This document shows positions 27,941 through 48,943 of a stretch of 64,000 bases of DNA, piece by piece (position 1 is the stretch's first letter; each line of letters begins with the position of its first letter). Below the pieces are notes generated by a model. The model had not been told where the DNA came from. It was given only the letters and a program-made list of their open reading frames with translations, and did no database searches. The DNA comes from a virus (lineage: Duplodnaviria; Heunggongvirae; Uroviricota; Caudoviricetes). The position numbers were made by a program, and so were the translations under genes. The stretch lies in the IMG/VR virus record IMGVR_UViG_642979322_000022; one strand, written 5' to 3'.

Positions 27941-27946
27941 GCCCAT

Positions 27947-29416: not shown

Positions 29417-29443
29417 AATAAAAAAGCCTTCAGGACTGAAGGC
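29417..29443 (-). terminator. rho-independent terminator-like hairpin
   Basis: Minus-strand GCCTTCAG..CTGAAGGC followed by TTTTTTATTT; overlaps the stop of the 77-aa ORF. Confidence 0.45.
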
Positions 29444-29663: not shown

Positions 29664-29748
29664 TAACTCTTGTCAAAAAAGCCAGCAAGCTGAAAGACCG
29701 GTATTCACCGCCACCAGCGCGTTTACTGTACTGACGCGATTTCAGTCA

Positions 29749-29771
29749 TAAAAAACCCGCCATGCGGCGGG
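29749..29771 (-). terminator. rho-independent terminator ~100 nt downstream of Q (candidate tR')
   Basis: Minus-strand CCCGCC-GCAT-GGCGGG followed by TTTTTTATG. Confidence 0.5.
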
Positions 29772-29853
29772 GTGTAAAAAATCTTCTAACGTCAGGCATA
29801 AAACGCCCATCGTTAGGGCAAATTTACCACAGATTCGGGAAAAATCAACAAAG

Positions 29854-31046: not shown

Positions 31047-31058
31047 CAGTCACCTCTT

Positions 31059-32108
31059 TTACCCAAGCACGCCAGTTGCAAAGGCGTGATCAAGAAAACG
31101 AAAAATTAAATCAACCTGAGAACCATGCTTTTCTTCGAACGCCAGCGGATCCGCATGAAGCTCGTTGTGATGCTCCCGACACAGCGGTAGCGTGAAAATA
31201 TCGTGAGATTTTGTCCCCATTCCGCCCTGACCATGACCAATCAGGTGATGGGGATCGTCGGCTGGCTTACCACAACACGCACACGGCTGTGTCTTTACCC
31301 AGCGTGTGTATTTCTCATTTACCCAGCGGCGACGTTTAGGTCGTTTCATGAACGATTCAGGAGACTCCGGATCAACGGCGATACTGACAACCGTTTTTTT
31401 CTGTGGTGGATTTTGTTGCTGGTGGACGTGAAGTGGCAGCGCAATATTTTTTGTGCGCTGCTTCAGTATGCTGATGGCTGTCTGTTCTCCCGGTACGATG
31501 TCACTCTCACGGTATACGGAGCGGATTTTTTCCGCTGGTAATCCCAGCGAACGACGCGCTACTGCCTCAGGTAGTGCATCCACCACCTGATTGCAGGCCG
31601 CCCACCAGGATAATTCGGCCAGCGATAACTCCCTCTCCTGCGTACCGCTTATTGCGTGACGGATGACATCAATCATCCAGGCAACCAGATTCTGCTGAGC
31701 AAGTTGATCGAGTGATTCTGATGTCTGGTCGCGCAGCTGGTTGTCGCAGTGCCAGCACAACACCATCGCGCCGGTACCATAACGGTGAATGACTGTTTCG
31801 CTGTGATGATAATCGCCGTGTGGCCACTGGCAGGATTTCACGTGACGTAATAACCAGTCAGACAGTGCACCTGCACCACCTGCTGCACGAATAACCCGCT
31901 CATCGCTGAAAAATGGCAGTAATGTTTTATCCTCTGCCAGCGGCTGGCGAACGGCAGGAACGACTCCGGACGGCAGACCGCGCATGTTTTTCGGTTCCGG
32001 CTCCACCAATATTCTGCCGTTATGGAATACTGACATTGATTCACGGCCTGGCTTAACGATAACCAGACCGAGTTCCGGTACCAGAACAGGTCGAAGTAAT
32101 ACCCGCAC
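31059..32108 (-). CDS. DUF968-like phage protein with C-terminal HNH-like zinc-binding region
   Basis: 349 aa; C-terminal PCACCGKPADDPHHLIGHGQGG...CREHHNELH; true start probably an internal Met. Confidence 0.55.
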   Translation of the reverse strand: MRVLLRPVLVPELGLVIVKPGRESMSVFHNGRILVEPEPKNMRGLPSGVVPAVRQPLAEDKTLLPFFSDERVIRAAGGAGALSDWLLRHVKSCQWPHGDYHHSETVIHRYGTGAMVLCWHCDNQLRDQTSESLDQLAQQNLVAWMIDVIRHAISGTQERELSLAELSWWAACNQVVDALPEAVARRSLGLPAEKIRSVYRESDIVPGEQTAISILKQRTKNIALPLHVHQQQNPPQKKTVVSIAVDPESPESFMKRPKRRRWVNEKYTRWVKTQPCACCGKPADDPHHLIGHGQGGMGTKSHDIFTLPLCREHHNELHADPLAFEEKHGSQVDLIFRFLDHAFATGVLG

Positions 32109-32109
32109 G

Positions 32110-32388
32110 TTACCTCCAGATGCGCTGCTGGAATGTGCGGGACGGACGCGGTGGGCGTTCGGAATAAGGGAGCCTGGCGGAGATTATCCAGTGACGACGA
32201 TCGAAGCTGAGATCTTTCTGAAACTCGTAACCACGTCTGCGGTAGCACTGAATCAGCCATTCGGCCTGTTCTTCAGTGCATGGGTCATGCTGGAACCAGT
32301 CAGATTTGAATGCATGAGAACACCGCCCGTGCCTGCTGGCAAAGACGGCTGAATTATCAGAATTGTTAAGTTTCTTGTAATGCACCAC
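32110..32388 (-). CDS. hypothetical protein
   Basis: 92-aa track ORF; no family recognised. Confidence 0.3.
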   Translation of the reverse strand: MVHYKKLNNSDNSAVFASRHGRCSHAFKSDWFQHDPCTEEQAEWLIQCYRRRGYEFQKDLSFDRRHWIISARLPYSERPPRPSRTFQQRIWR

Positions 32389-32453
32389 TACTATCCTCGT
32401 AATGGTGCGACAGACGCCAGTTGTTCAGGCTGGCTTTACTACAGCATTATAAT

Positions 32454-32648
32454 CTAGTCTCTTTTAATGCTGAAGTAACTGACCGAATCCGCATGCGATT
32501 CTTTGCTGATCAGAATAACATCAGATGGCAATGGCATTACGATAAACTCACCATTCCCAAGAACTATTACTTCATAATTACCTGGTATAGAAAGCGCAGC
32601 AATTAATTCCTTATCGTTCATAACAAAAATCCCATGAACTATAAACAC
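32454..32648 (-). CDS. hypothetical protein in an AT-rich island
   Basis: 64-aa track ORF (54 aa from MNDKELIAAL...); locally low GC. Confidence 0.3.
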   Translation of the reverse strand: MFIVHGIFVMNDKELIAALSIPGNYEVIVLGNGEFIVMPLPSDVILISKESHADSVSYFSIKRD

Positions 32649-32899
32649 CTCCCCTTATGGGGGCCATCCCTCTTATCCCTGCGCGCTACTTAAGAGCCTC
32701 GATTCTAGCCGTGAAGACATGCCAATCAACAGCAATAAACCACCTGAATAACAGAATCAGCCAGCCACATCGGTACAACCAGATGCATCACGCTCACCGA
32801 AAATAAACAACAAAAAACCGCCGAAGCGAGTTAAGTGGGGTGCGTTGAGGATGCCTGACACATCAGAGGTGGCGAGGGATTTCTCCCCCGCCAGGTCTC

Positions 32900-33055
32900 T
32901 TACTCCTCAGGTTCGTAAGCTGTGAAGACAGCGACCTCCGTCTGGCCGGTTCGGATTCGTACCTCGCAGAGGTCTTTCCTCGTTACCAGTGCCGTCACTA
33001 TGACGGTTAAACAGATGACGATCAGGGCGATTAGCATCGCCTTTTGCTGCTTCAT
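32900..33055 (-). CDS. hok: Hok/Gef family type I toxin
   Basis: 51 aa MKQQKAMLIALIVICLTVIVTALVTRKDLCEVRIRTGQTEVAVFTAYEPEE; the track's 70-aa overlapping frame is Mok-like; the antisense Sok region would lie ~33060-33250 on the plus strand (not resolved). Confidence 0.85.
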   Translation of the reverse strand: MKQQKAMLIALIVICLTVIVTALVTRKDLCEVRIRTGQTEVAVFTAYEPEE

Positions 33056-33305
33056 AGCCTGCTTCTCCTTGCCTTTCGGCACGTAAGAGGCTAACCTACG
33101 TGTGTAGAGCATAGATATGGCCTCAGATTAATGTTAAGCGTCTTGCCGGACGCGTAATGTTAACTGGGGCTTTTCTCTATCTGCCGTTGGTGTTCATGCC
33201 CGAGGCAGATAGCCTCAAGCACCCGCAGCAATTCTACTTAACTCTCGCTTTACCGCAAACCGTTTTTACCCGATATGGGAATTCCCATATCGTAATGAAT
33301 TCAGT

Positions 33306-33404
33306 TCCCTAGTCGATCCATCAAAAACACAACCAGGCAGTAAACGCCCACAACAGCAATAACAGCCAGCGCACCTTCCATTGCCAGTGAAATATCATCC
33401 GACA
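33306..33404 (-). CDS. 32-aa hydrophobic small ORF (not in ORF track)
   Basis: Hand translation MSDDISLAMEGALAVIAVVGVYCLVVFLMDRL; AAGGAGGG 5 nt upstream of the ATG. Confidence 0.3.
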
Positions 33405-33436
33405 TATTCCCTCCTTTGGTGTGAATCCCGGCGAAC

Positions 33437-33520
33437 GTTTTTACCCCCACCGACAAATAACATATACTAAAAAATCAATAGCTATAGCAACGCCTGTAAT
33501 TGCAAAGGCTTCAGGCCAGA
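33437..33520 (-). CDS. 27-aa hydrophobic small ORF (not in ORF track)
   Basis: Hand translation MIWPEAFAITGVAIAIDFLVYVICRWG; ATG overlaps the stop of the upstream DUF551 gene (ATGA). Confidence 0.3.
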
Positions 33521-33883
33521 TCATTGGCGCACCTCCTGCGGCGGTTCTGGTAGCGGCATCCAGTGTGACGGTTTCCACGACGCACCAGGAATTATCCACC
33601 CATCATTAGCGTCAGGATGCCCCGGGATGTAAGTAGCCCATTTCATTCGCCAGTCACCTTTCCTGTCAAACTCCACGGCAACAAGAACGGCTGTTTTGGT
33701 ATTCGGCATTCGCTCACTACAGCTTATCCAACCATCCGGAGTTACCGGAGAATTGCCAGCCTTGCGCATGGCAATCTCCATGATTTCAACCATATCTCCT
33801 GGTGGAATTTTACAATGCTGACCAATATGCCTCTGCTGCCTGGCATATTCGAGGATGTGCTCCAGCTTGATACGATTAATCAT
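33521..33883 (-). CDS. DUF551-like phage protein
   Basis: 120 aa with C-terminal ...WISCSERMP...HWMPLPEPP typical of DUF551. Confidence 0.55.
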   Translation of the reverse strand: MINRIKLEHILEYARQQRHIGQHCKIPPGDMVEIMEIAMRKAGNSPVTPDGWISCSERMPNTKTAVLVAVEFDRKGDWRMKWATYIPGHPDANDGWIIPGASWKPSHWMPLPEPPQEVRQ

Positions 33884-34251
33884 GATTTATCTCCCTGAAG
33901 CATGGCTTCGCGGCAGTCGTTCCAGCCTTCAGCATAATCACTATACGCAAGAGGCCAACCGTTTCTGTATTCACGCGGCAACTTATCAGGCACTACCAGC
34001 GCTGGCGGCGCGGAGAATAGTGGTTTAGGTGATATTTCCGCACGTTTTGCGTATGCTTCAACTGTGTCAGGGTTAAACAGGATTATGTTTTCACCGCATT
34101 CCCACGCTATCGGTTCTGCTTCCAGCGATGCCAGTGCAATTTTGAATAACTCGCCCTCTACCCGTGCCATCCCTGAATTGGGGTAGCATTTCGCAATCGC
34201 TATTTTTAATTTGGCTTCTTCGATTAATTTCTCTTTGGTTAATTCAGTCAC
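33880..34251 (-). CDS. hypothetical phage early protein
   Basis: 123-aa track ORF; coupled to the downstream gene. Confidence 0.4.
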   Translation of the reverse strand: MTELTKEKLIEEAKLKIAIAKCYPNSGMARVEGELFKIALASLEAEPIAWECGENIILFNPDTVEAYAKRAEISPKPLFSAPPALVVPDKLPREYRNGWPLAYSDYAEGWNDCREAMLQGDKS

Positions 34252-34286
34252 TTTTCATTACCGCCCTTTCGGGCGGCCTCCTGACA

Positions 34287-34499
34287 TTAATCGTTGTGAT
34301 AACTCATAGCTTCATTTGCAGCATCAACTGGATCAACATCCCACCAGCAATAATTTGGGTCGACACCTTCAGGTGTCCACGGCTCTAATTCATTTTTTGC
34401 CGCATTCTCGTCGCCAGTAATTTTAAAAATCTGCTCTGAGAACTTTTTCACCCACTCGTTATATTTTTCAGCGTTAATAACTTTCTGTGCGTTTGACAT
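34287..34499 (-). CDS. hypothetical phage early protein
   Basis: 70-aa track ORF. Confidence 0.35.
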   Translation of the reverse strand: MSNAQKVINAEKYNEWVKKFSEQIFKITGDENAAKNELEPWTPEGVDPNYCWWDVDPVDAANEAMSYHND

Positions 34500-34547
34500 T
34501 GATATACCTCCGGTTAAGGATTAAATTTTTAACAGAGCTAAATTTAA

Positions 34548-34964
34548 TTATTCAGTTCTGGATTTTGTCACCCTGCGTATCCGCGCTTTCACGTTACGCT
34601 CAATCTGAATTAGCTTTTCTATATTTCTCCGCCTTTCCCGTTCCTCCTGGCGCAAGATCCTTACATCATCTGCCAGTCTGGTTTCTCTTTTCGCCACAGA
34701 GAGCATCCAGTCAAATGGCTCCACAACTGCACCGCAGATTTTACAGCGGACCTGACGCTCTTTTTCGTCAACCCGAACAGAGGCGTGATGACAATATGCT
34801 CTTTCCGATGGCTCATAAAGAAAATTAACCTGATTACGTGGGTCATCCTCTTTTACCGGAAATAAAACGATATTGCTTAACTCATCTTCTGGTTTTATTT
34901 CCATGCTCTTCTCCTTTGATGTGAATGCCAGCGACAATTGAAGCCTGATAGCTAATTCACTCAC
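34548..34964 (-). CDS. hypothetical protein with zinc-ribbon-like CxxC...CxxC and basic coiled-coil tail
   Basis: 138-aa track ORF (CHHASV...CKICGAV). Confidence 0.4.
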   Translation of the reverse strand: MSELAIRLQLSLAFTSKEKSMEIKPEDELSNIVLFPVKEDDPRNQVNFLYEPSERAYCHHASVRVDEKERQVRCKICGAVVEPFDWMLSVAKRETRLADDVRILRQEERERRRNIEKLIQIERNVKARIRRVTKSRTE

Positions 34965-35371
34965 AATACCGCCTCCTGAAAATTGCCCTGATAGAACGCC
35001 AGTACACGCAGCATAACTTCACTCTTCCGGCACTCGCCACAGATTATGTTCTGTTGTCTGTCGTAGCGGCGTATTTCTCCGTCTGGTAACTTTCGAATCA
35101 ATGTCTGGTCGGTTGTTTTCTCCGCTGCCTTACGCCATACGCGATACACCTGTTCTGATGTAAAAACACCGTATTTACCGGGCATGTATAAATCGCCGCA
35201 AGCCAGTACATCCACAAGGCAACGTCTGACTGAATGCCAGCCTGCTCCCGTCGCTCTCTCCAGTTGTGATATCGTCATGCGTTCATTTTTGCGTACCAGC
35301 CCGATAATTCGGGCCTTCAGTTCTTCACGCTGTTCGTGTGTAAAAGGTTTCGCCATAAGCGCCTCCGGCAA
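34961..35371 (-). CDS. hypothetical phage early protein
   Basis: 136-aa track ORF; overlaps neighbours by 4 nt. Confidence 0.4.
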   Translation of the reverse strand: MPEALMAKPFTHEQREELKARIIGLVRKNERMTISQLERATGAGWHSVRRCLVDVLACGDLYMPGKYGVFTSEQVYRVWRKAAEKTTDQTLIRKLPDGEIRRYDRQQNIICGECRKSEVMLRVLAFYQGNFQEAVL

Positions 35372-36142
35372 TCACTTTTCCGACACAATACGACCGGATG
35401 AATCGACAATCTGCCGAACAATATCCCGGTGCTTGTTCAGCTCCCGCAGCGCGGCGCAGACACGCTCCCACTTCTGAACCTGACCTTTTGCCCGGCGCAG
35501 CTCGCGGTTAGCCACATGCAGCGATGGTAAAATCAGACCATCCGGATGTTTTCTGGTGAACAACGGCTGTGACTGCACTGTGACCGCCACAGTTTCTGTT
35601 TTATTTTCTTCCTGTGTTGCGGCTTCCCGGACTGGTAACGCAGCACCTGCTGGCTGAGGAAAGGCCTTACCATCACTTTCCGTTACCAGCGCGGCTTTCG
35701 GCTCTGCTGGTAAATTATCGCCCGGCATGCAGTAACGAAATTTACCGTTCTGATTAACGCGTGCCAGCCGCCCCGTTGCGGTTACCACCGCCAGCGTGGA
35801 AGCAACCTTGCGAGTACTGACGCCGAACTTACCCGCCAGTTCCTCACACGTTTTAGCCCCATCCTGACCGATAAACTCAATCATCATGTCTGCGGTAACT
35901 TTTTGTTCGACCTCCCTGGTCAGCATATCCTGTGCTTCAGATTTTACTGGCCGCTCTTCGGTTACCCCGGATTCACCTTCGCCAGCCAGAAACCAGGTGT
36001 GACCCGTTTTATCAACAACGCTATTTTTTTTGAGTTCCCACAGTTCGTTGAGAACTTCTTCACGGCTGATATCAAGCCGCGCCGCCAGTTCAACAGAATT
36101 GGCTTTACCCATCGCTTTCAGTGCATGCAATACGGTTTCCAT
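35372..36142 (-). CDS. hypothetical phage protein (DUF1627-like)
   Basis: 256 aa with N-terminal winged-helix-like region; family call from memory. Confidence 0.45.
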   Translation of the reverse strand: METVLHALKAMGKANSVELAARLDISREEVLNELWELKKNSVVDKTGHTWFLAGEGESGVTEERPVKSEAQDMLTREVEQKVTADMMIEFIGQDGAKTCEELAGKFGVSTRKVASTLAVVTATGRLARVNQNGKFRYCMPGDNLPAEPKAALVTESDGKAFPQPAGAALPVREAATQEENKTETVAVTVQSQPLFTRKHPDGLILPSLHVANRELRRAKGQVQKWERVCAALRELNKHRDIVRQIVDSSGRIVSEK

Positions 36143-36171
36143 TAAAATTTCCTCCGGATAAAAATTACTTC

Positions 36172-36912
36172 TCAGTTCCTGTGCTGGCTGACGTTCGGAC
36201 GCCAGCTCTCCCAGTTAAACGTCACCCAGCGACCTCCGTTCATGGACATGCGGTCCATCACCCGCTCGCCGAGAAGTGTATTCATCGCTGCATGATTAAG
36301 ATTTGTCAGCATCCCCACACTGAGTAACGATGCCGTTCTGCGGTCAACAATCTGATTAAGCGTGACCTGCTCATTACGCGTATCCCGCTGCATGCCAATT
36401 TCATCCAGGACCAGCAAATCCACCCCGCAAAGCTCCTGTAAAAATTTTTCACCTGATTTGCCGTTGTCGTAACTGTCGTGCAACACACTCATGACATCAG
36501 ACACAGTGATGATAATTACGCTGCGCCCCTTCTCCATCAGCCGATTGCCTATCGCCGCCGCCAGGTGGTTTTTTCCTGTGCCAGGCCGGCCACTGAACAC
36601 AAAATTCGTACAGCCGCCTTCCAGCTCTGCCGCAATGGATTTCGCCTGACTCAGGGCATGGCGCTGACCAGCGTTCTGCACCCGGTAGTTACAGAACGTA
36701 CACTTCCGGTGAAGCGGCTGGATACCGGAGCGGTTAATGATTTTTTCAACCCGCGTCTGATGATTCAGACGATTAACCTCCTCGCTTCGCTTACGCCCTT
36801 CAGCAAGCTGCCATTCCCGCCACTCCGCCACCGTACGGTACGGAGGGATTGCATCCTGCGGCACAAATCTGCTGATTCTTGCCAGAACACCACCTGACGT
36901 AATGTTTTTCAT
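36172..36912 (-). CDS. replication protein, DnaC/IstB-like AAA+ helicase loader
   Basis: 246 aa with Walker A GRPGTGKNHLA and Walker B LLVLDEIG. Confidence 0.8.
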   Translation of the reverse strand: MKNITSGGVLARISRFVPQDAIPPYRTVAEWREWQLAEGRKRSEEVNRLNHQTRVEKIINRSGIQPLHRKCTFCNYRVQNAGQRHALSQAKSIAAELEGGCTNFVFSGRPGTGKNHLAAAIGNRLMEKGRSVIIITVSDVMSVLHDSYDNGKSGEKFLQELCGVDLLVLDEIGMQRDTRNEQVTLNQIVDRRTASLLSVGMLTNLNHAAMNTLLGERVMDRMSMNGGRWVTFNWESWRPNVSQHRN

Positions 36913-36918
36913 GATGCG

Positions 36919-37887
36919 CTACCCCCTGAACCCCGGCGGAATTTCGGTATCCGGTTCAGAAATATGATTCACGCAACGCTGCGCGGGCGAACGCCCCAGG
37001 CGAATAACCAGCTCATCCCATTTTTCCCGGAGTTTTGCCGGACTCATGATGTTTTTTACCCAGAACGAATCCCGTTGAACACGCCCAAACATTTCACAAA
37101 TCTGTCGGTGACTACGTCCATCCAGCATACGCATCATGCGCACATCATTCGCCCAGGTCGTCCAGTTAGGCTCTCTGGGGCGTGATACCTCCCCATCATC
37201 ACTGGCGGCCTGTTCATACAACGCAACAACCCGTCCCCAGATCCACTGTGCACACGTCAAATCCTCCCGGGTTCCCCACTGTCGCTTCGGTACATTCCAG
37301 GTATGCGCATCCGGGTGTTTCTCCAGAAATCGCTCAACTGGTGATGATTGTTTTTCGTCCGGCAGTGAAACGTCCGGACAAGAAGATCTTTTATCTGACG
37401 GATCAGGTTTTAATACTGACGGATCGGGGTCAATCATCGCCCCCCTAATCCGCAGTTTTTTATCAACAGTTGATCCATCAACATTTGACGGGCCAACCGT
37501 TGAGGGGGCAATATTTGACGGGTCATTTTTTGCCTGGCTAATTTTTCTTTTTGGTTTATATGCCTCACGCGCCGCCGCTGCAGCTGCTTCAAGTTTTTCC
37601 ACATTAAGCCGATAGATATTGCTTACGTTACGCCCACCGACCTTACGCTCTTCCTTCGTCAGCCAGCCCTCTTTCGCCAGTTCTGCAATAGCCGATTTCA
37701 CTGTGGATTCACTTCTTGCACCGATCTGACGCCGGATAGTTTCAATGGCAGGCCATGACACGCCCTCGTCATTGCTGTAGTCTGCAAGACGGGCCATAAC
37801 CGCCACCCTGGATAAGATCATGCCGGTGAAGGCGCACCCTTCCCAGACAAGACCATGAAGCTTGCTGCTCATAAAACCCCCGAACAC
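36919..37887 (-). CDS. replication initiation protein (O-like, N-terminal HTH)
   Basis: 322 aa immediately upstream of the DnaC-like gene; N-terminal winged-helix-like region. Confidence 0.55.
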   Translation of the reverse strand: MFGGFMSSKLHGLVWEGCAFTGMILSRVAVMARLADYSNDEGVSWPAIETIRRQIGARSESTVKSAIAELAKEGWLTKEERKVGGRNVSNIYRLNVEKLEAAAAAAREAYKPKRKISQAKNDPSNIAPSTVGPSNVDGSTVDKKLRIRGAMIDPDPSVLKPDPSDKRSSCPDVSLPDEKQSSPVERFLEKHPDAHTWNVPKRQWGTREDLTCAQWIWGRVVALYEQAASDDGEVSRPREPNWTTWANDVRMMRMLDGRSHRQICEMFGRVQRDSFWVKNIMSPAKLREKWDELVIRLGRSPAQRCVNHISEPDTEIPPGFRG

Positions 37888-37894
37888 CGTGCTT

Positions 37895-38320
37895 TTAGTG
37901 CATCACCACAGCATTCCCTGCCGGGCCGCCGCGATTCATCTGGTCATACAAAACAACCGCTGACGCAACAAAATCATCGACATCCTTCACCAGCCGATCC
38001 CTCCGTTCGACGATCTCACGGTAATATTCAGAACTGTGGCTGCGCATACGGGCCACCAGCAAAGGCGGCATCGCCTTTTCGATCGCCGGTAACAGAGCCT
38101 GCATTTTTTCAACAGCATCAGGGGTGTCTTTCTCTACCCAGCGGAAAATTTTCTGGGTATTGCGAGCCAGGGCTTCCGGATGGCTGTCGTCATACAGTTC
38201 TGGGAACGTCATACCCAACTCAAAATAAGCCTGGGTTATTCCAGCTGCTGGAACTTTTTCGCCATCAGGACGCGCCCAGGCATTCATCGCCATGCGGATG
38301 TGTTCATGCTTGATTTTCAT
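37895..38320 (-). CDS. YdaT-like regulatory protein (CII analogue position)
   Basis: 141 aa directly downstream of the cro-like gene, as ydaT in Rac-type prophages. Confidence 0.5.
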   Translation of the reverse strand: MKIKHEHIRMAMNAWARPDGEKVPAAGITQAYFELGMTFPELYDDSHPEALARNTQKIFRWVEKDTPDAVEKMQALLPAIEKAMPPLLVARMRSHSSEYYREIVERRDRLVKDVDDFVASAVVLYDQMNRGGPAGNAVVMH

Positions 38321-38579
38321 GAATCAACTCCGGTGTATTTTGTGTGTTAGCCTTATCTCCAGCAGGCAACCCGTCGGTTGGATTCGGATATAAATCTGGT
38401 CGCAATTCATGAGGAGTCACCCCAGTTGCAATATAAATTTGACGAACCCGCTCCCCTGTCGGCACTCGACCATTGTATTCATTTGCCCATTTGTGTATTT
38501 GAGACGGCCAAGCCCCTATTGCACGCCCTAGCGGACGAATACCACCAGCAATCTTTATTGCCTTGTCCAATGCTGTCAT
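38304..38579 (-). CDS. Cro-like repressor (DicC/YdaS family)
   Basis: 91 aa; divergent from the repressor gene across an operator-containing gap. Confidence 0.65.
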   Translation of the reverse strand: MTALDKAIKIAGGIRPLGRAIGAWPSQIHKWANEYNGRVPTGERVRQIYIATGVTPHELRPDLYPNPTDGLPAGDKANTQNTPELIHENQA

Positions 38580-38608
38580 ACAACCTCCAATTCAATCAGC
38601 CACAACAT

Positions 38609-38666
38609 TGTTCACTTAAAGAGAACATAAGTCAACACTACGAGGAATTGTTAGTGTTCACTGAAC
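38609..38666. promoter_or_regulatory. operator/promoter region between divergent repressor and cro-like genes
   Basis: Dyad TGTTCACTTAAAGAGAACA (38609-38627) and GTTCACTGAAC (38656-38666) sharing half-site TGTTCAC. Confidence 0.5.
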
Positions 38667-38681
38667 GGTTATAATTGCTAA

Positions 38682-39071
38682 ATGGACATGAGAAAAAAGC
38701 AATACGACACCCCGCTGGCAGAAAGGTTAGATACGATCTCGCAACAGCATCATTTAAGCGGTTCAGATTTAGCGCGCATCGCTGGTGTAGGACGCTCATC
38801 AGTCAACGCCTGGAAAAAAAGAGGGACAATCAGTAAAGATTCCGCAGCCAAAATTGCAGAAGCGACAAATGTTTCCCTTTCCTGGCTACTGACAGGAAAA
38901 GAAGATACAAACAGAGAGGCGCTTGATGATGATGAGAAAGCCCTGCTTGATGTTTACAGAAACCTGCCACCTGTAGAGCGTAGAAATATGCTGGCAGCTT
39001 TTCAAATGCGCCTTCAAAAACTGACCGAATTTTACTCAGAATACGTTGACCCAATAACGCGACAAAAATAA
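38682..39071 (+). CDS. prophage repressor (DicA/CI-like, XRE-family HTH)
   Basis: 129 aa with HTH LSGSDLARIAGVGRSSVNAWKKRG. Confidence 0.75.
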   Translation: MDMRKKQYDTPLAERLDTISQQHHLSGSDLARIAGVGRSSVNAWKKRGTISKDSAAKIAEATNVSLSWLLTGKEDTNREALDDDEKALLDVYRNLPPVERRNMLAAFQMRLQKLTEFYSEYVDPITRQK

Positions 39072-39144
39072 TTCTTTATTTTACAAAACAATACCGCCGG
39101 AAGGCGGTTTTTTTTGCCTCTTGCGCATTCACAATGTTGACATA

Positions 39145-39163
39145 TGTTCATCTTAAGAGAACA
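39145..39163. promoter_or_regulatory. third operator-like dyad upstream of the dicB-type operon
   Basis: TGTTCATCTTAAGAGAACA, same pattern as the 38609 site. Confidence 0.4.
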
Positions 39164-39239
39164 ATATATCCCATCAAAGCACAACGGTGCGACAGGTCTT
39201 AGTTCCGCCCCCCCGGCGTTAAGGGCAAATGAGGTCAAC

Positions 39240-39392
39240 ATGGATACGCTCAATCTTGGCAACAACGAATCTCTGGTATACGGAGTATTCCCCAACCTGG
39301 ACGGCACGTTTACCGCGATGACGTATACCAGAAGCAAAACGTTTAAAACTGAAGCTGGCGCGCGTCGCTGGTTAGCCAGAAACACTGACTGA
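39240..39392 (+). CDS. ydfA: YdfA-like small protein
   Basis: About 50 aa from ATG MDTLNLGNNESLVYGVFPNLDGTFTAMTYTRSKTFKTEAGARRWLARNTD; track ORF has an N-terminal extension. Confidence 0.6.
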   Translation: MDTLNLGNNESLVYGVFPNLDGTFTAMTYTRSKTFKTEAGARRWLARNTD

Positions 39393-39709
39393 TGAGGTTG
39401 ACGATGGAATTTAAAGATTTACCAATGCAATTCCAGGAAATGGCAGCGAATATAGTTCGTTCCCAACTGGCGACTCTTGACCTGAGTACCGTAGAAAAAG
39501 AAACCATCGACAATATATCCCATAATGTGCGTAATTCCTTTATTAAGCTGTACGAAGAGAATCTGAGTTCTGAAAACAAAGATGATTCACCTAAATTCAC
39601 CCCACACCCAGGTGGAGTGAGTGAGATTTATCATGAAACAATGGTTAAAGCACTACGTATGCAAATAGCCGAACTTGAACATAAATTAAATTTAGTTAGT
39701 AAGTGCTAA
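39392..39709 (+). CDS. hypothetical protein of the dicB-type operon
   Basis: 105-aa track ORF. Confidence 0.4.
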   Translation: MRLTMEFKDLPMQFQEMAANIVRSQLATLDLSTVEKETIDNISHNVRNSFIKLYEENLSSENKDDSPKFTPHPGGVSEIYHETMVKALRMQIAELEHKLNLVSKC

Positions 39710-40073
39710 AATCAGCACAAGGCAAAAGGGTTGCACTTTCATCATAAGGGCAAACAAAAATGTGAGCATTAGCACCAACTGAATTAGCAATAGAAAAGGT
39801 TTGTTCAAGTATTTGATTCGCATTAAGCGTTGACTGAATAACGTATGCCCCTGGCAATAATTTATATTCAATGTCACCTTCATTAATCATCCTGGAGTAT
39901 TTAAAATTTGGCATCAGAGTCTCGAACTTTTTCTCCTGTTCCATTGTTGCTTCAAATAACTGCACATGGACATAATATCGATTGATTGATTTAGAGTGCA
40001 TTTTATCCTCCATTAAGGGCTGGGTTAAAAATGGAGACCAACACGCTGTCACGTGTGGTCGTGCGCCGGACAC
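39696..40073 (-). CDS. hypothetical protein antisense to the early-left operon, in an AT-rich island
   Basis: 125-aa track ORF with GTG start (about 100 aa from internal ATG MHSKSINRY...); local GC drop. Confidence 0.25.
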   Translation of the reverse strand: MSGARPHVTACWSPFLTQPLMEDKMHSKSINRYYVHVQLFEATMEQEKKFETLMPNFKYSRMINEGDIEYKLLPGAYVIQSTLNANQILEQTFSIANSVGANAHIFVCPYDESATLLPCADFSTY

Positions 40074-40337
40074 GGATAAGAATCCGGTACTGACAGTTTA
40101 CTGAAAGGCTCTTTCCCTGAAAAGTCAGGGCATAACACGAAAGCGCACGGCGAAATTGGTCTCTCTGTACGGTGTCGTTAAATTTAGTTCGACCGTGCGC
40201 TTCCGGTTGTGGCAATCCGCGAAATGGCGCGGCGGTAAGTGTGGCGGGGTTATTCTGTTCCCCCTTGAGGACGCCGGGTTGTCAGGTTGACCATACGCTT
40301 AAGTGACAACCCCACTGCAACGCCCTCTGTTATCAGT

Positions 40338-40390
40338 TTTCTGGTGACGTTTGGCGGTATCAGTTTTACTCCGTGGCTGCTCTGCCGCCC
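40338..40390 (+). ncRNA. dicF: DicF small RNA
   Basis: TTTCTGGTGACGTTTGGCGGTATCAGTTTTACTCCGTGGCTGCTCTGCCGCCC matches recalled 53-nt DicF with one mismatch; T-run follows; upstream of dicB. Confidence 0.8.
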
Positions 40391-40564
40391 TTTTTAAAGT
40401 GAATTTTGTGATGCGGTGAATGCGGCTCAGCGCACGCGGAACAGTTAAAACCAAAAACAGTGTTATGGGTGGATTCTCTGTATCCGGCGTTAATTGTTAA
40501 CTGGTTAACGTCACCTGGAGGCACCAGGCACCGCATCACAAAATTCATTGTTGAGGACGCGATA

Positions 40565-40753
40565 ATGGAAACGTCACTACCAAACGTTAATACGTCTGAA
40601 GGGTGTTTTAATATTGGTATTCTGCTCAGTAACCGGGAGTTTACTGAAGACGCCATCAGGATGAGAAAATATGAGCCTTATCTTCTCAATGATAATTCCA
40701 TACTCTCCAGAATTGCCCTTCTTGAACTTGGCATTTTCGGAGGGCAGCAGTGA
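40565..40753 (+). CDS. dicB: DicB-like cell division inhibitor
   Basis: 62 aa from internal ATG METSLPNVNTSEGCFNIGILLSNREFTEDAI... Confidence 0.8.
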   Translation: METSLPNVNTSEGCFNIGILLSNREFTEDAIRMRKYEPYLLNDNSILSRIALLELGIFGGQQ

Positions 40754-40938
40754 GTTCAGCGTTTGCACTGATGATGACGGTTTTTCTTATAACAGGTGAG
40801 CCACAGAATGTGATTACCGGAATTTATGCCAGTAAAGAATCCTGCCATCAGGCAAGAGACGAGCAAAAAATTTCCGGTGAATGTCTCCCGTTAAACAAAG
40901 TATCGCTGTACCTGAATAACGAAATACCGGCTGGATAA
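40750..40938 (+). CDS. ydfD: YdfD-like small protein
   Basis: 62 aa, hydrophobic N-terminus, ends NNEIPAG. Confidence 0.6.
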   Translation: MSSAFALMMTVFLITGEPQNVITGIYASKESCHQARDEQKISGECLPLNKVSLYLNNEIPAG

Positions 40939-41030
40939 CCCGCCAGCCGTATTAACGCCATACCCGTTGATTAAGCATGCCAGCAATAGCAGGGATTCGT
41001 ACAACCTTAAAATAGTTATGAGGTTTATCA

Positions 41031-43475
41031 ATGAGCACTGATAAAGAAGAAATTGCACTGTATTACGAAGCCAAAAATGACAAAGTCAGAAAACGCCTTG
41101 GGATTAAAGGCGGTTTTTACTGGCGCACAGCAAAAAAATTATCGGTTGCAATATCACGGGGTGTTGTCGCAATGGACGATGCTGGATTTGACGAAGAGGA
41201 TTTCAAAAAACCTGTTCGCGTGAATTTGCCCATTGTTAATGACCTGCCGCCTGAAGGTGTGTTCGATACTGAATTCTGCAACCGCTATGAAAAAGGCGGA
41301 GAAGATGGCATCACAATGATATTTATAGCGCCTTCCCCCTCAGTTCAGGACAAACCAGCCAGCACTGACAATACCAACGTCAATGGCGAAGACATGGCTG
41401 AGATTGAGGATAATATGCTCCTGCCGATTTCCGGTCAGGAACTGCCCATTCGCTGGCTTGCGCAACATGGCAGCGAAAAACCGGTAACGCACGTTTCACG
41501 GGAAGAACTTCAGGCATTACATATCGCACGAGCTGAAGAACTGCCTGCTGTTACTGCCCTGGCTATTTCCCACAACACAAAGCTGCTCGACCCGCTGGAG
41601 ATTCGCGACCTTCACAAACTGGTACGCGACACAGACAAAGTTTTCCCTAATCCCGTTAATTCCAGTCTGGGGTTAATGACTGCTTTTTTCGAAGCATACC
41701 TGGACGCTGACTATACCGATCGAGGTCTGCTGACAAAAGAGTGGATGAAAGGAAATCGTGTTTTACGCATCAGCCGCACGCCATCCGGCGCTAATGCTGG
41801 CGGAGGAATTCTTACCGATCGCGGTGAAGGTTTTGTCCACGATGATGCGTCAGTGGAACGTGACGTTGCCGCTGGCGTTCTGGCCCGTTCAATGGACATC
41901 GATATTTACAATCCACATCCGGCACACGCCAAACGCATTGAAGAAATCGTTTCAGATAATAAGCCGCCCTTTTCTGTTTTTCGTGACAAATTCATCGCCA
42001 TGCCTGGTCACCTGGATTATTCCCGCGCGATAGTGGTTGCGTCCGTGAAAGAAGCACCAATTGGTATCGAGGCTACTCCCCACCGTGTTACCGAATATCT
42101 GAACAAAGTACTGACCGAAACCGACCATGCCAACCCTGATCCAGAAATCGTGGATATTGCCTGCGGTCGCTCCTCTGCTCCAATGCCGCAGCGTGTAACA
42201 AAAGAAGGAAAACAGGATGATGAAGAAAAACCGCAGCCATCTGGCGCAATGGCAGATGAACAGGCAACGACTGAAGCAGTGGAACCGGATACAACTGAAC
42301 ATAATCAGGACACGCAGTCGATGGATGCTCAGCCACAGATAAATTCTGTTGATGCGAAATATCAGAAACTGCGGGCAGAACTCCATGAAGCCCGGAAAAA
42401 CATTCCGCCCCAAAATCCTGTCGATGCAGACAAATTACTGGCTGCCTCTCGCGGAGAATTTGTTGAAGGGATTAGCGACCCGAATGATCCGAAATGGATT
42501 AAGGGGATCCAGACCCGCGATTCTGTGTACCAGAATCAGCCAGAAACGGAACAGAACGACCAGAAAGCGGAACAGAACAGCCCAAATACGCAACAAAACG
42601 AGCCAGAAACGAAACAACCTGAACCAGTAGTGCAACAGGAACCGGAAAAGATCTGCACCGCCTGCGGTCAGAGGAGTGGCGGCAACTGCCCTGATTGTGG
42701 CGCGGTGATGGGCGACGCAACATACCAGGAAACATTCGATGACAAGAACCTGGTTGAAGTTCAGGAAGACGATTCGGAGAAAATGGAAGGCGCTGAACAT
42801 CCACACAAGGAGAATGCTGGCAGCGCTCAGGACCACGCCAGCGATAGTGAAACTGGCGAGACGGCAGATCCCTTAATTACGGTGAACGGTCATCGCATTA
42901 TCACATCCACCAGCAGGACGTGTGACCATCTAATGATCGACCTTGAAACCATGGGAAAAAATCCTGATGCCCCGATTATCTCAATAGGTGCAATATTTTT
43001 CGATCCGCAAACCGGAGATATGGGACCGGAATTTAGTAAGACTATCGATCTGGAAACTGCTGGCGGAGTCATTGATCGGGACACCATTAAATGGTGGCTT
43101 AAGCAATCACGCGAAGCGCAATCTGCCATTATGACCGATGAAATCCCGTTAGATGATGCACTGTTACAATTGCGGGAATTTATCGACGAAAACTCCGGTG
43201 AATTTTTTGTTCAGGTCTGGGGAAATGGAGCCAACTTCGACAACACGATTTTGCGCCGTTCATACGAACGGCAGGGGATCCCCTGCCCGTGGCGTTACTA
43301 CAACGATCGCGATGTACGCACAATCGTTGAGCTGGGGAAAGCCATAGACTTCGATGCCAGAACTGCTATCCCATTCGAAGGTGAGCGCCACAATGCGCTG
43401 GATGACGCTCGTTACCAGGCAAAATACGTTTCAGCTATCTGGCAAAAACTGATCCCGAATCAGGCTGATTTTTAA
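41031..43475 (+). CDS. large phage exonuclease with C-terminal DnaQ-like (DEDDh) 3'-5' exonuclease domain
   Basis: 814 aa; Exo motifs [29 protein letters not shown]; zinc-ribbon CTACGQ...CPDCG; Q/E/N/P-rich low-complexity linker. Confidence 0.75.
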
Positions 43476-43539
43476 TGTTCAACCCCGGTCGTTGCCCACC
43501 AGCTATAGTGGCGGCGACCATGATTAGCGAACGACGCTC

Positions 43540-43788
43540 ATGGCAAGACTTATTCTGCTCACTGAGTGGGCAAAAGAGGAATTCAGTGAACCGGTCCCTA
43601 CTCCGAGTACGTTAAGTAAATACGCTAAAGCCGGAATGATATTTCCTCTCCCCAAAAAAGTTGGAAGACGCTGGCGAGTGGATCCGCAAGCTCGCTTTGT
43701 CGGAATGGTAAACAAGCCGGAGGTGATCGCCACAGATCACCCTGCTTTGAAGAGGATACTGGAAGATGGCGCGCCCGCGAAAATATAA
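43540..43788 (+). CDS. xis: excisionase (Xis-like)
   Basis: 82 aa immediately upstream of and overlapping int. Confidence 0.6.
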   Translation: MARLILLTEWAKEEFSEPVPTPSTLSKYAKAGMIFPLPKKVGRRWRVDPQARFVGMVNKPEVIATDHPALKRILEDGAPAKI

Positions 43789-44896
43789 AACCGATGTTCC
43801 GGGATTATCTCCGTATTTTGACAAAAGAAATAACAAAGTTTACTGGCGTTACAGGCATCCCATAACAGGCAAAAATCACGGTCTCGGCAGTATTGACCAG
43901 AAACTGGCAGAAACTATTGCAGCAGAAGCGAACAGCCGTCTTGCCCGGCAGCAAATGGAACAAATGCTCAGTCTGCAGGAGAAAATTATTAGTGATACCG
44001 GCGGTTCATCAACCGTTACCATTTTTCTGAATAATTACAGAAAAATTCAACAGGAAAGATATGAAAACGGCGAGATCAAACTCAACACGCTGAAACAGAA
44101 AGCGGCCCCTCTCAGGGTATTTGATGAACGTTTTGGCACCAGACCGTTAGATGCCATAACCGTAAAAGATGTGGTATCAGTACTGGAAGAGTACAAGGCC
44201 AGAGGACATAACAGAATGGGACAAATTTTCAGGAAAGTACTGATCGATGTTTTCCGGGAAGCTCAGCAAACGGGCGATGTCCCGCCAGGCTTTAACCCTG
44301 CAGAATCTGCAAAAAAACCGCAGGTACGGATATCAAGACAGCGACTGACTTTTGATGAGTGGATGATGATTTATAACGCAGCGGAAAAGGATGGTTACTT
44401 TTTACAGCGCGGTATGCTGCTGGCACTGATGACAGGCCAGCGCCTTTCAGATATTTGCAAAATGCAATTTTCGGATATCCGGGATGGTTATCTTCATGTC
44501 GAACAGCAAAAAACAGGAACCCGGATTGCCATCCCTCTGGCTCTGCGTTGCGATAAATTAAATCTCACCCTGGATGATGTGGTGTCATCCTGCCGCGATT
44601 GCGTTCTTAGTCCGTGGCTATTGCACCACCATCACGCGAAAGGGACAGCTAAGCGCGGCGGGATGGTTAAGCCAGCAACATTAACCGTTGCATTTAAAAA
44701 AGCCCGGGATTCTGTGGATTACAACTGGCGTGCTAATGGCACCCCACCCTCTTTCCATGAGCAGAGATCTTTATCAGAGCGATTGTTCAGAGAGCAGGGG
44801 GTTGATACCAAAATTTTGCTAGGCCATTCGAATCAAAAAATGATCGATATTTACAACGACGCACGCGGTAAGGAATGGAAAAAACTGGTCATTTGA
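43766..44896 (+). CDS. int: lambda-family tyrosine integrase
   Basis: 376 aa; C-terminal catalytic region ...HEQRSLSERLFREQGVDTKILLGHSNQKMIDIYNDARGKEWKKLVI. Confidence 0.9.
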   Translation: MARPRKYKTDVPGLSPYFDKRNNKVYWRYRHPITGKNHGLGSIDQKLAETIAAEANSRLARQQMEQMLSLQEKIISDTGGSSTVTIFLNNYRKIQQERYENGEIKLNTLKQKAAPLRVFDERFGTRPLDAITVKDVVSVLEEYKARGHNRMGQIFRKVLIDVFREAQQTGDVPPGFNPAESAKKPQVRISRQRLTFDEWMMIYNAAEKDGYFLQRGMLLALMTGQRLSDICKMQFSDIRDGYLHVEQQKTGTRIAIPLALRCDKLNLTLDDVVSSCRDCVLSPWLLHHHHAKGTAKRGGMVKPATLTVAFKKARDSVDYNWRANGTPPSFHEQRSLSERLFREQGVDTKILLGHSNQKMIDIYNDARGKEWKKLVI

Positions 44897-44945
44897 TGAC
44901 CAGTTTTGCAGAGGGGTTTTGCAGAGGTTTTGCAGAGAAAATTAA

Positions 44946-45072
44946 AAACGATATCCTGCGGAGAACATAAACACCCACGGATCCAGTCGTACCGAGTCTT
45001 TCACGGTAGTAACACCAGATTTATACTTAGCCGTGGTATCGATATCCATGTACCACACTGGTAGATTTTACA
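44946..45072 (-). pseudogene. ompW: 3'-terminal fragment resembling ompW (about 40 codons); probable att-site remnant
   Basis: Hand translation ...VWYMDIDTTAKYKSGVTTVKDSVRLDPWVFMFSAGYRF* matches the recalled OmpW C-terminus; in-frame stop 7 codons upstream of the homology. Confidence 0.5.
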
Positions 45073-46195
45073 AAACTCAATAACATATTATATTTAAAGG
45101 AAAAATACAGAATTTACGATGCTTTTTTATACAGATCTCTCGTGTTTTTAACTGATTGATTTTGTTGAACTCTTTTTTTGTTTTGCAGGAGTTACTCCTC
45201 TTACCTTATTGTCCACTCGATGACCAACACATTCACAACCCAAACCAGAATATCCTATCTATGAAGCATGTATCCGCACGCAGATTAATTATGGTTTACA
45301 TTGTTCTACCACAATAGTCGCATCCTAAATGGGTGCGGTTGAGGATCACCATCCTTGAAGAGGATGCCCGCCACTTTAACTGCATGACAGGGCTATTTAA
45401 ACAATCACTAAAAATCGCCCAAGAGCATTCTGTTTCTATAATGTATTCCAAGAGATTAAAAAATAATATCATACGTTATTCGGCAGAGTTCGTATGTACT
45501 ACGGCGTCCCAACCATGTCCCAAAACAAAAATTTCTGCCCTATACACGTTCCAAAAAATTCAACAGCAAAGAGAGTCTGCTGACGAGTTGTTGATTCACT
45601 GATTAATACGTAAAATTGATAACTGCTGGAAATCATACAATACTCGTACTTTCGAAAGTTCGCTAACCAGGTGCTACACGCGAGGTGTTGCAGTTTTCTT
45701 TACGATTTATCATTCAATCCTAATCCATGCATGACATGTGGTGCCTGTGGGGTGATCCTACCTACGTAATGTGGACACAGCCCTAATCAAGGTTCTGTTT
45801 TTCAAAACAGTTCCGTGCTGAGACAGCCACAAGTACTGTGTCGGCACCACCGATTGTAATCACACTAGATCTAATTAAACACAGCCGTCTGCATTATTTC
45901 CCGACTCATAAAATATTAGCCGTAAATGCATTCGACTTTTAGTGAGTGGAAGAAACTTTCCGCCCTAGCATTATCGTAACAGCGCCCCTTTGCACTCATC
46001 CTGTCATGCAGGTATGCCGCTTCAGAAGCGCCTGATAATGCGTTGAAATCAGGACGGTGGCTACTTGCTATTCAGTTCACGATACATCCCTTAAGGACCA
46101 GCGAATAGCAATGAGTCACTTTATTATCAAGTTTGATGACCGCTTTGATGCTAACTTTTAATAAGAGTCTCTTCACACAAAATCGTGTACCGAGT

Positions 46196-46846
46196 CTACA
46201 CTGAATAACAATCACTCCTCACCGTAAAGTGACCGATACTGCAATCAAACTCACACTGCTCTCTGGCCACAAGCATTGATAATGTTATTGGCTCTCTGCT
46301 TAGTGGGTGATGCATCCCATCATTAATTATACGAGAAAGAGCCATTTCATCATATAAACTACATACTCTGGAACCTTCAGCATTTCTTAAAAAAACACCT
46401 CGTTGAGGAATTGCCAGCGTAATCGGGCACTGTAATGCTTCATCTATGTAAGACATTTCTTCAATATTAACTAAAAATGAACATGAATGTAATCGCCGCT
46501 GTAACAATTCAATTCTGTTATCATTACTATGCATAAATTCAGAAATAACCTGCCCCATATATGTACTGAATACATCAAGAAATGAATTGCCTCCATTCAA
46601 TTGATTTTCAACAGAATCAGCCAATCTAATGATATCGGCTAGTTCTGTATGGCTTAAACCCGAATATAGTTCCCCTTGAACAGGATCTACAATAAAAGCG
46701 TCCATAGCACTCTGATAGCGAACAGAAAACGATCATTCTCCTATTGTGAGTCTTTCCATTTGATGATCTCTGGTCGCACGTTGTAAAACTTCAACATCTT
46801 GTGTTGACAAGTAATTTCCAGAAGACAAATTAAATGAAAATGGCAT
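46196..46846 (-). pseudogene. nleG: nleG-family effector (U-box E3 ligase) with in-frame premature stop
   Basis: ATG near 46846 reads MPFSFNLSSGNYLSTQDVEVLQRATRDHQMERLTIGE then TGA; same frame continues ...MDAF... to the U-box (CPITLAIPQRGVF...HPLSREPI). Confidence 0.7.
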
Positions 46847-48110: not shown

Positions 48111-48352
48111 CCGTCATTTCTCCCGCCCGTGTAAACACTACTGAATCTTGTCGTTGTGACAAAGCTATAAATAGTCAATCACAGCACGTTTCTGCGTACG
48201 ACGCGCTGCAATTTTCTTTACGATTTATAACTGTACAGGTGAACTATGAGTTATTTGGATACATACATATAGTGTAACGCCTGTTGTATATTTTACTCAT
48301 ATCTTTTTACAGGATGAAAACCAATGATACTGGCGCATAGCCTCCTCCAACC

Positions 48353-48943
48353 TTACCCCTGTATAACACGACTCATATAACCTGGGATTTCATTTCGTAG
48401 TTTTACAATATCAACACCCGGGGCGATATGTTTCTGATAAAACTTGTCTGCAAGCACGTTTGCTATGTAATCTGTTGTACTGTTTTTTACAGCTCGGCTC
48501 ATACCATCGCAAAGAGCATCCATTTTTTTGCCAAAAGAAGCATTTCCTATTATTATATGATTAATAGAACTTTGTGCCGCTTTAACATCAAGAGTTAGTT
48601 CAAACTCCTTACTTACAAGAGAAAAGACCATTTTCCTCTCTTCAGAAGAAATTTTTGCATTTTTTTGAAGGCAGCAATTATCAATCTCTTGGTTGATAAC
48701 CCTTGACGGATATACTGTCCGTTCATCACTTACCCATCCATGAATATCTTTAGTACTCTGCCTGCTTACCGTCTCCAGTATACAGCCGCTAAATTTGTTA
48801 ACATTAAAGCGGATAGAGCGCTCTCCCATTGAACACTTCACGACCTCATCATTCTTCCCACGGATGGTGCCCCGGAAAGAATTATCTTTATGATAACTGA
48901 TACCAAAAGAGCTGAAGGACACACCTGTCGCATTTACTGGCAT
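48353..48943 (-). CDS. espM: WxxxE-family type III effector, EspM-like
   Basis: 196 aa with WxxxE motif (WVSDE); length and layout as EspM/IpgB/Map family. Confidence 0.7.
   Translation of the reverse strand: MPVNATGVSFSSFGISYHKDNSFRGTIRGKNDEVVKCSMGERSIRFNVNKFSGCILETVSRQSTKDIHGWVSDERTVYPSRVINQEIDNCCLQKNAKISSEERKMVFSLVSKEFELTLDVKAAQSSINHIIIGNASFGKKMDALCDGMSRAVKNSTTDYIANVLADKFYQKHIAPGVDIVKLRNEIPGYMSRVIQG

Follow-up and report, generated by a model that had tools for sequence, protein, structure and literature searches.

The attachment site (attP) of phage lambda contains the elements P1, H1, P2, X, F, H2, C-O-C′, H′ and P′1-P′3, is acted on by the integrase (Int), the integration host factor (IHF) and the excisionase (Xis), and has the int gene next to the P′ arm; the lambda arm motif is C/AAGTCACTAT. 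The element described here is an attachment (att) site lying directly behind an integrase gene, here called intA, in a 64,000-nucleotide stretch of caudoviral DNA (IMG/VR record IMGVR_UViG_642979322_000022). The whole of this stretch is called the window, and coordinates refer to it unless another sequence is named. The closest described system is that of the lambda-like prophages named PPompW by Nakamura, Ogura, Gotoh and Hayashi (2021, PLoS Pathog, PMC8112680), for which the paper reports a 121-bp att derived from sequenced attP polymerase chain reaction (PCR) products, the regeneration of attP and attB on excision as seen by PCR, the presence of PPompW in 44% of 767 complete Escherichia coli genomes, and the presence of tandem PPompWs in O157:H7. 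In strain EC4115, three direct repeats of the exact 28-bp sequence CAGTGTGGTACATGGATATCGATACCAC are given in the available text of Carter et al. (2024, PMC11688487) as present in one intact and two 117-bp truncated copies of ompW, together with the description of another lineage, PNUSAE013245, in which the 45-kb prophage between the two truncated copies (prophage A below) is missing.

The site in the window was found to be the published site. It contains the same integrase (99.7% identity), the 121 bp at the same distance from int and the same 28-bp repeat, with the same arrangement of one intact ompW and two 117-bp truncated copies as in EC4115, and nothing differs in substance from the available text of the two papers (PMC8112680, PMC11688487). 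The feature and its interpretation are already published, and the site is real but ordinary. In that text, att is defined as the whole 121-bp homology, which is here narrowed to a 28-bp crossover segment, and the arm-type repeats, the IHF consensus and the hairpin are left unannotated. The additions made here are refinements, namely the arm-site and IHF assignments, the 28-bp core with inverted hexamers, the comparison of the hairpin and the variability of loop L4 of OmpW.

The site is very probably the middle junction of a tandem, head-to-tail pair of lambdoid PPompW prophages, called A and B, at the 3′ end of ompW in E. coli O157:H7. The 601 bp around it were found to be 100% identical to many E. 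coli O157:H7 chromosomes, and the 18 kb compared at 26000-44000 were 100% identical to E. coli O157:H7 M1300706002 and to strain 6535. The gene order in TW14359 and M1300706002 was found to be yciC, an intact ompW (639 bp), intB and xis, prophage B, a truncated ompW, intA and xis, prophage A, and a second truncated ompW followed by yciE. Prophage A (~45 kb) and prophage B (~58 kb) contain long shared stretches of 90-99% identity and an Int of the same type (~97% DNA identity), and the end of prophage B distal to intB is an effector locus with nleA, nleH, nleF, nleG and espM1. At its left end the window reaches to within ~300 bp of the far end of prophage A, and at its right end it stops within the tail genes of prophage B. 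A phage-phage hybrid att between tandem prophages at the ompW 3′ end had been proposed in a first-pass annotation of the window, and the flanking chromosome bore this out: the intact ompW was found outside the window, directly adjoining intB of prophage B, and a third ompW 3′ fragment was found beside yciE at the far end of prophage A, ~300 bp past the left end of the window. Both outer boundaries, the ompW 5′ portion at the int side and the displaced ompW 3′ end by yciE, are present outside the window in the matching genome CP089270 and in TW14359, and the outer junctions of the array are normal ompW attL and attR sites. A single PPompW, in which attL and attR are separate, should not give at least 80% coverage of the 601-bp query in one place; such coverage was found in 109 genomes, and a partial match was found in 1,940 of the 5,426 complete genomes. 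Nothing contradictory to the att assignment was found.

The product of intA was found to contain an arm-DNA-binding domain (PF09003, E=7e-22) followed by a catalytic domain (PF00589, E=8e-16), an architecture which, judged by these domain matches, is of the lambda type. It was aligned over its full length to the lambda Int structures 5j0n and 1z1b (E=1e-55), with 36% identity to lambda Int, and it retains R, H-x-x-R, H and Y in the columns aligned to 5j0n, which we take to be the catalytic residues of lambda Int. Over 376 amino acids it was 99.7% identical to intE of the PPompW records LC567818, LC567826 and LC567836. The stop codon of intA is TGA at 44894-44896.

Behind intA, the minus strand was found to contain an OmpW-like C-terminus, which had been reported as about 40 codons long and was found to contain 38. 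The open reading frame (ORF) at 44942-45058 encodes VWYMDIDTTAKYKSGVTTVKDSVRLDPWVFMFSAGYRF and matched the Pfam family OmpW (PF03922) with E=3.7e-12 at profile positions 158-195 of 195. The similarity to ompW stops at 45060, and three codons before the first homologous codon the frame contains a TAA (45068-45070), in agreement with the earlier placing of the end of homology at such a codon. The fragment at the tandem junction is an orphan without a start codon, and the same bases are labelled in RefSeq as a truncated 'OmpW family outer membrane protein' (117 bp). The 121-bp segment was found to be identical base for base to the repeat_region 'duplication due to insertion of PPompW' of GenBank LC567822, and the region 44600-45060 was 99.1% identical to PPompW records, with the match ending exactly at the outer edge of the annotated 121-bp duplication.

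The core was located by a four-way alignment of K-12 ompW (unoccupied attB), the ompW-intB junction (attL), the window hybrid and the yciE-side copy (attR). The comparison gave the 28-bp segment CAGTGTGGTACATGGATATCGATACCAC, which is identical in the host ompW and in the three att copies and has a single occurrence in the window. On its upstream side the sequence is ompW in K-12 and at the ompW-intB junction, and phage P arm at the window site and in the yciE-side copy. Downstream of the segment, both int-linked copies were phage-type, identical to each other at 119 of 121 positions and to K-12 ompW at 95 of 121, and the yciE-side copy was host-type, identical to K-12 at 119 of 121. The two single-nucleotide polymorphisms (SNPs) separating the A copy from the B copy lie in the int-side 93 bp. 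From this pattern it follows that the crossover lies within the 28 bp and that the other 93 bp next to intA are phage-borne. By the alignment, the window fragment is a phage-borne ompW-like sequence linked to intA and not a host leftover, and the displaced host 3′ end is the yciE-side copy; a remnant of a host ompW duplication was rejected, since the sequence is phage-type and its boundaries coincide with att. Inverted hexamers, GTGGTA and TACCAC, were read around 12 bp within the 28-bp segment, and they are candidate core-type sites flanking the overlap. In Escherichia albertii NBRC 107761 (IMG/VR locus L009, 2599-2960), a 99% identical Int followed by the hairpin, the repeats and a phage-type ompW tail was found joined at the core to a non-ompW ORF, creating an in-frame fusion ORF. 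The partner ORF presumably resembles an rRNA methyltransferase such as RlmC, and the join suggests a secondary integration site or a rearrangement.

The order of elements in the window was found to be intA, P′(A), core and P(B), followed by the prophage B effector locus, the arms being named P′(A) and P(B) by analogy with lambda. The site is a P-O-P′ hybrid composed of P(B), core and P′(A), and it is structurally attP-like. The P, 121-bp and P′ segments of phage 204576 are contiguous, and the free attP therefore has the same structure as the hybrid in the window. Three diverged P arms, that of prophage B, that of prophage A and phage 204576, and that of P-EibA, were found to be poorly conserved by the core and to contain a shared block at ~45141-45190, and their similarity ends just beyond the fourth copy of the repeat described below. 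This block contains a perfect IHF consensus, a candidate IHF bend site, which P-EibA shares unchanged and from which the A-type arms deviate at one position. It is the sole perfect match in 44860-45260, where ~0.06 would be expected per 400 bp, and 10 such matches were found on both strands of the whole window.

Table. Features of the att site and the adjoining recombination genes in the window
Feature	Coordinates	Strand	Basis
xis (excisionase) of prophage A	43540..43788	+	82-aa ORF; Pfam Exc PF07825, E=1.3e-7; RefSeq 'excisionase' WP_000113189.1
intA, PPompW intE type, lambda-family heterobivalent tyrosine recombinase	43766..44896	+	376-aa ORF; PF09003, PF00589
Perfect palindrome, 12-bp arms and 3-nt loop, across the int stop codon	44881..44907		arms 100% complementary
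Three direct GTTTTGCAGAGG units, candidate arm-type Int sites (compare lambda P′1-P′3)	44903..44938	+	repeat search, Tandem Repeats Finder, Int linkage
121-bp PPompW att, phage-borne ompW 3′ end, 38 codons and stop	44940..45060	-	match to LC567822 repeat_region; Pfam OmpW
28-bp segment CAGTGTGGTACATGGATATCGATACCAC, crossover region	45033..45060	-	identical in host ompW and three att copies
P arm from prophage B, end distal to intB	45061..45192		contiguous with prophage B effector locus
Perfect IHF consensus AATCAATCAGTTA (WATCAANNNNTTR), candidate IHF bend site	45149..45161	-	consensus match in conserved P-arm block
Fourth arm-type motif copy (GTTTTGCAGGAGTT) in P arm, candidate counterpart of lambda P1/P2	45180..45193	+	same repeat family

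A phage of the PPompW type would hold a phage-specific form of the final 38 ompW codons beside int, and a crossover by Int and IHF within the 28-bp core would rebuild a full-length ompW at attL and displace the host 3′ end to attR. The ompW gene of the lysogen was found to remain full length, and we infer that the ompW-like piece serves to restore the gene when the phage integrates. The attP of a second phage sharing this Int specificity would then recombine with the existing attR or attL, giving the P-O-P′ hybrid. In the presence of Int and Xis, the hybrid could pair with the outer attL or with the outer attR, by which either prophage would be excised alone.

A prophage-in-prophage event, in which the 121-bp ompW-like sequence of one prophage served as the attachment site (attB-in-PP_3) for the other phage, was weighed against this tandem integration and was found to be very unlikely. 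The 121-bp sequence in prophages is named as a potential attB in the available text of Nakamura et al. (PMC8112680), and the window contains the published set in the published order, that is, the 121 bp followed by attB-in-PP_1 at 45368-45388 and a ykgJ/ecpE-like segment at 45574-45748. However, the array lies at ompW itself, both prophages contain the same Int type and the outer junctions are normal. The term attB-in-PP_3 refers to the 121 bp in a prophage that is not at ompW, and both prophages were found at ompW. The same text classes such arrays as tandem PPompWs and reports that integration into attB-in-PP_3 was not observed; an event between attP and attL or attR yields the same product as an attB-in-PP_3 insertion, and the distinction is semantic here.

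Between the end of int and the ompW-like segment, the P′ arm was found to contain three direct units of GTTTTGCAGAGG starting at 44903, 44916 and 44927, of which two are perfect and the third matches at 10 of 11 positions. The first-pass annotation had described three tandem 11-bp repeats; the three units stood, and the word tandem was slightly loose, the spacing being 13 and then 11 bp with a GG spacer after the first unit. The first unit overlaps the last four bases of the palindrome described below. The array has a Tandem Repeats Finder score of 54, and no other 10-mer was found three times within 40 bp in the window or in any of 30 shuffles. The fourth copy, which the first-pass annotation had missed, lies across the core from the triple, and its position is conserved in the P arms of prophage A, phage 204576 and P-EibA.

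A scan of IMG/VR with the triple-motif pattern gave 88 matches, and 63 of the 88 were found to lie 4-22 nt past the stop of an Int homologue (45-100% identity). All of these 63 Int-linked triples contain the 13/11 spacing and are followed by 14 distinct downstream contexts, of which ompW is just one; the remaining 25 matches were mostly unrelated equal-period coding repeats. A few of the contigs were found to contain a fourth copy downstream of the triple, at +252 to +268, most IMG/VR contigs being prophage-derived and having host flank, not P arm, beyond the triple. Profile sampling of Int homologues in IMG/VR returned 80 loci, which were almost all near-identical and most of which ended exactly at the int stop. 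The Int relatives of K. georgiana and E. bugandensis were found without repeats, and their N-terminal domains are as query-like as those of the repeat-bearing relatives; these two cases are uninformative, their arms having probably been truncated or replaced.

A related system with another target was found in Escherichia phage 4A7 (L103), which represents the phage 21/e14 systems integrating into icd. The two systems share an Int with 50% identity, an int gene followed by three direct repeats of 11-13 bp and a hairpin, a convergent phage-borne icd 3′ fragment which rebuilds the target on integration, and a fourth repeat in the P arm. Phage 4A7 contains TTTTGGGGAAG three times after the int stop (2349-2385) and an analogous fourth copy, TTTTGGGGAAAGG, in the P arm (2733-2746), so that all four sites carry the changed motif TTTTGGGG, both arms in concert. 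It differs from the window site in its target icd, in its motif TTTTGGGGAAG and in the position of the hairpin, which lies between the gene fragment and the repeats and not over the int stop. The literature gave no usable account of phage 21 / e14 arm-type sites. In the potC-targeting relative, phage 813R8 (L104, 2375-2412), TTTTGGRGA was found three times after the int stop. The motif thus tracks the integrase and not the target, and changes in concert on both arms, as arm-type sites should.

The four GTTTTGCAG units look like candidate arm-type Int sites of the lambda style, and they would be bound by the N-terminal arm domain of Int. As in lambda attP, attL and attR, an Int with an arm-binding N-terminal domain is accompanied by a xis gene overlapping int, by three direct arm-type repeats between the core and the int stop, and by at least one further repeat copy and an IHF consensus on the other arm, and tandem lysogens contain a P-O-P′ hybrid. 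Unlike in lambda, the arm motif is GTTTTGCAG, the target lies inside a gene, so that the P′ arm holds a replacement coding end, and the distance from core to repeats is ~95 bp, which is longer than that of lambda. From the motifs GTTTTGCAG, TTTTGGGG and TTTTGGAG it could be possible to read, as a code, the specificity of the arm-binding domain in this Int subfamily.

The palindrome across the int stop consists of AAAACTGGTCAT (44881-44892), a TTG loop and ATGACCAGTTTT (44896-44907), and its 12-bp arms, which had been noted at first reading, were found to be fully complementary. Perfect palindromes with arms of at least 12 bp and loops of at most 10 nt were found three times in the 64 kb, with a block-shuffle mean of 0.04. 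The other two lie at 2230-2260 and 55991-56021; both were found to contain AAAAACCGGAGCCGGACTCCGGTTTTTG in homologous contexts downstream of tail-fibre sequence, and they are classic G+C-rich terminators, unlike the A+T-rich hairpin at the int stop. The 76-nt fold around the int-stop palindrome gave -21.3 kcal/mol (z -3.3) on the plus strand, a value to which another small hairpin, in the repeats, contributes, and -17.0 kcal/mol (z -5.0) on the minus strand, the hairpin by itself accounting for about -14 to -15 kcal/mol. Counting only the 8-bp CTGGTCAT stem, an A6 run is present upstream (T6 on the minus strand, in the ompW direction) and T4 is present on the plus strand. A scan of 44300-46000 with Rfam gave a sole match, to NRON, which was below threshold and due to chance.

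In ompW-targeting relatives from Kluyvera and Raoultella (Int 67-68% identity) the palindrome was found unchanged. Two relatives with another target (Int 64-65% identity) were found to keep the hairpin with U-G wobbles and one compensatory C-G to U-A change, and there it is stable only in int-sense RNA (-12.7 and -8.2 versus -0.4 and -4.8 kcal/mol), which suggests a function in the RNA at the 3′ end of the int message. The palindrome is probably a bidirectional terminator or a 3′-end RNA hairpin between the convergent reading directions of int and ompW, a reading made by manual inspection and folding. An RNA-level role of the hairpin at the 3′ end of the int message, at which it may double as terminator of the rebuilt ompW, is put at about even odds, because few relatives were compared and the left arm has a coding role as well. 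In this role the palindrome would act as a terminator or as a stabilising RNA hairpin for int and possibly for ompW transcripts, the native terminator of ompW having been displaced.

Within att, the int-proximal (P′) arm, and not the ompW remnant, is the part that holds the repeats and the palindrome. It is highly improbable that the three 11-bp units and the palindrome are unrelated to recombination, as chance low-complexity sequence or as a 3′ untranslated region or terminator serving ompW only. Once ompW is rebuilt, the units do fall in its 3′ untranslated region, the minus strand has six T behind the palindrome, and three matches to the 11-mer across the whole window were reached in 30 of 100 shuffles. 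However, the clustering of the three units has no counterpart elsewhere in the window or in the shuffles, the triple follows Int homologues in 13 contexts other than ompW, a fourth copy is present across the core, and the hairpin persists in the relatives with other targets, where its stability is confined to the int-sense RNA.

An origin of the junction by RecA-dependent homologous recombination or rearrangement between the related prophages, for which their long stretches of 90-99% identity would give the substrate, is the least credible alternative and was rejected, since A-linked sequence gives way to B-linked sequence precisely at the att boundary 45060/45061, in the 28-bp core of all att copies, and the int-side 93 bp carry the two SNPs that distinguish the A and B copies, where a homologous exchange is not expected to land on the core.

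Several points weigh against the account of Int-mediated tandem integration with its arm sites and hairpin. The binding of Int, IHF and Xis at the proposed sites is a prediction from sequence, and either of the two phages may have integrated first. An attB-in-PP_3 description is raised by Nakamura et al. (PMC8112680), and for this array it is indistinguishable from tandem integration. The left arm of the palindrome also codes for K-L-V-I, and a part of its conservation is not independent evidence. A consensus terminator scan of 44600-45500 returned no terminator-like site.

The 21-bp attB-in-PP_1 of Nakamura et al. (reverse complement of GTCATGCAGTTAAAGTGGCGG) is present as an exact and unoccupied match at 45368-45388, within a segment of ~110 bp (45289-45400) in which similarity was also found to the yecE-fragment region of phage phi80 and to att duplications of Shiga toxin (Stx) phages. 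These 21 bp, which lie 300 bp from the ompW att, are a landing site for Stx2 phages of the yecE type. The regions 45574-45748, 48173-48335 and 214-258 were found to be 71-80% identical to the K-12 ykgJ/ecpE intergenic region, which is given as the source of attB-in-PP_2 in the available text of Nakamura et al. (2021, PMC8112680); two of these copies lie in the prophage B effector locus and the short one lies at the far end of prophage A. A truncated tyrosine recombinase without an arm-binding domain (PF00589, E=2e-38) was found at ~56035-57094 (ORF 56353-57093), adjoining a C-terminal fragment of a tail fibre between nleH and nleA, and this region looks like a relic of an older prophage junction inside the prophage B effector locus.

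Effector genes are present at both prophage ends. The far end of prophage A contains an OspG/NleH-like kinase (549-1139, minus strand), and prophage B contains NleG and EspM1 (IpaB/EvcA family) just past the att site (46196-46705 and 48353-48943, minus strand). The NleG gene is a single ORF of 169 aa in the window and is split in the annotation of TW14359. The early and regulatory region of prophage A was found to be mosaic between strains, 26000-40000 being 90-98% identical to TW14359 in blocks with flanks above 99%, and the 18 kb at 26000-44000 were also 98.9% identical in an O111:H8 genome. Outside the window, the ompW-yciC intergenic region (CP089270 3078816-3078905, TW14359 1677006-1677095) contains a 90-bp RefSeq pseudogene fragment, 'YkgJ family cysteine cluster protein'; the unannotated K-12 intergenic sequence matches this region with 98.6% identity, and the region is therefore backbone and not phage-derived.

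In the codons of the last strand, the differences between the phage version of the ompW end and K-12 were all found to be synonymous. The OmpW of the lysogen contains seven changes from K-12, all at residues 185-194 (N185K, L188S, G190V, A191T, Q192T, Q193V and H194K), which lie between the last two strands of the eight-stranded barrel, a stretch we take to be the fourth external loop (L4). In other phages of the group (IMG/VR L022, L049, L054, L078, L067 and others), the OmpW C-termini differ almost only in that loop; one phage-borne version is five residues longer, and on either side of the loop VWYMDIDT and RLDPWVFMFSAGYRF show little or no variation. OmpW is the receptor of colicin S4 (PMC2649078) and of a T4-like phage in Serratia (PMC10132071), and lysogeny might therefore rewrite a receptor epitope; the literature gave no usable account of the OmpW loops used by colicin S4. 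It is a doubtful but conceivable proposal from these comparisons that PPompW-type phages may carry a variable replacement cassette for OmpW L4, with lysogenic conversion or exclusion as the outcome. If true, this would give a phenotype to an integration event so far treated as neutral.

For annotation, the 117-bp 'truncated OmpW' pseudogene is a component of a phage att and not a decaying host gene, and the neighbouring repeats are probable Int arm sites. Prophage A (~45 kb) is described as present in some lineages and absent in others in the available text of PMC11688487. The site explains the stacking of effector-carrying prophages at one locus of O157:H7 and the clean gain or loss of one of them.

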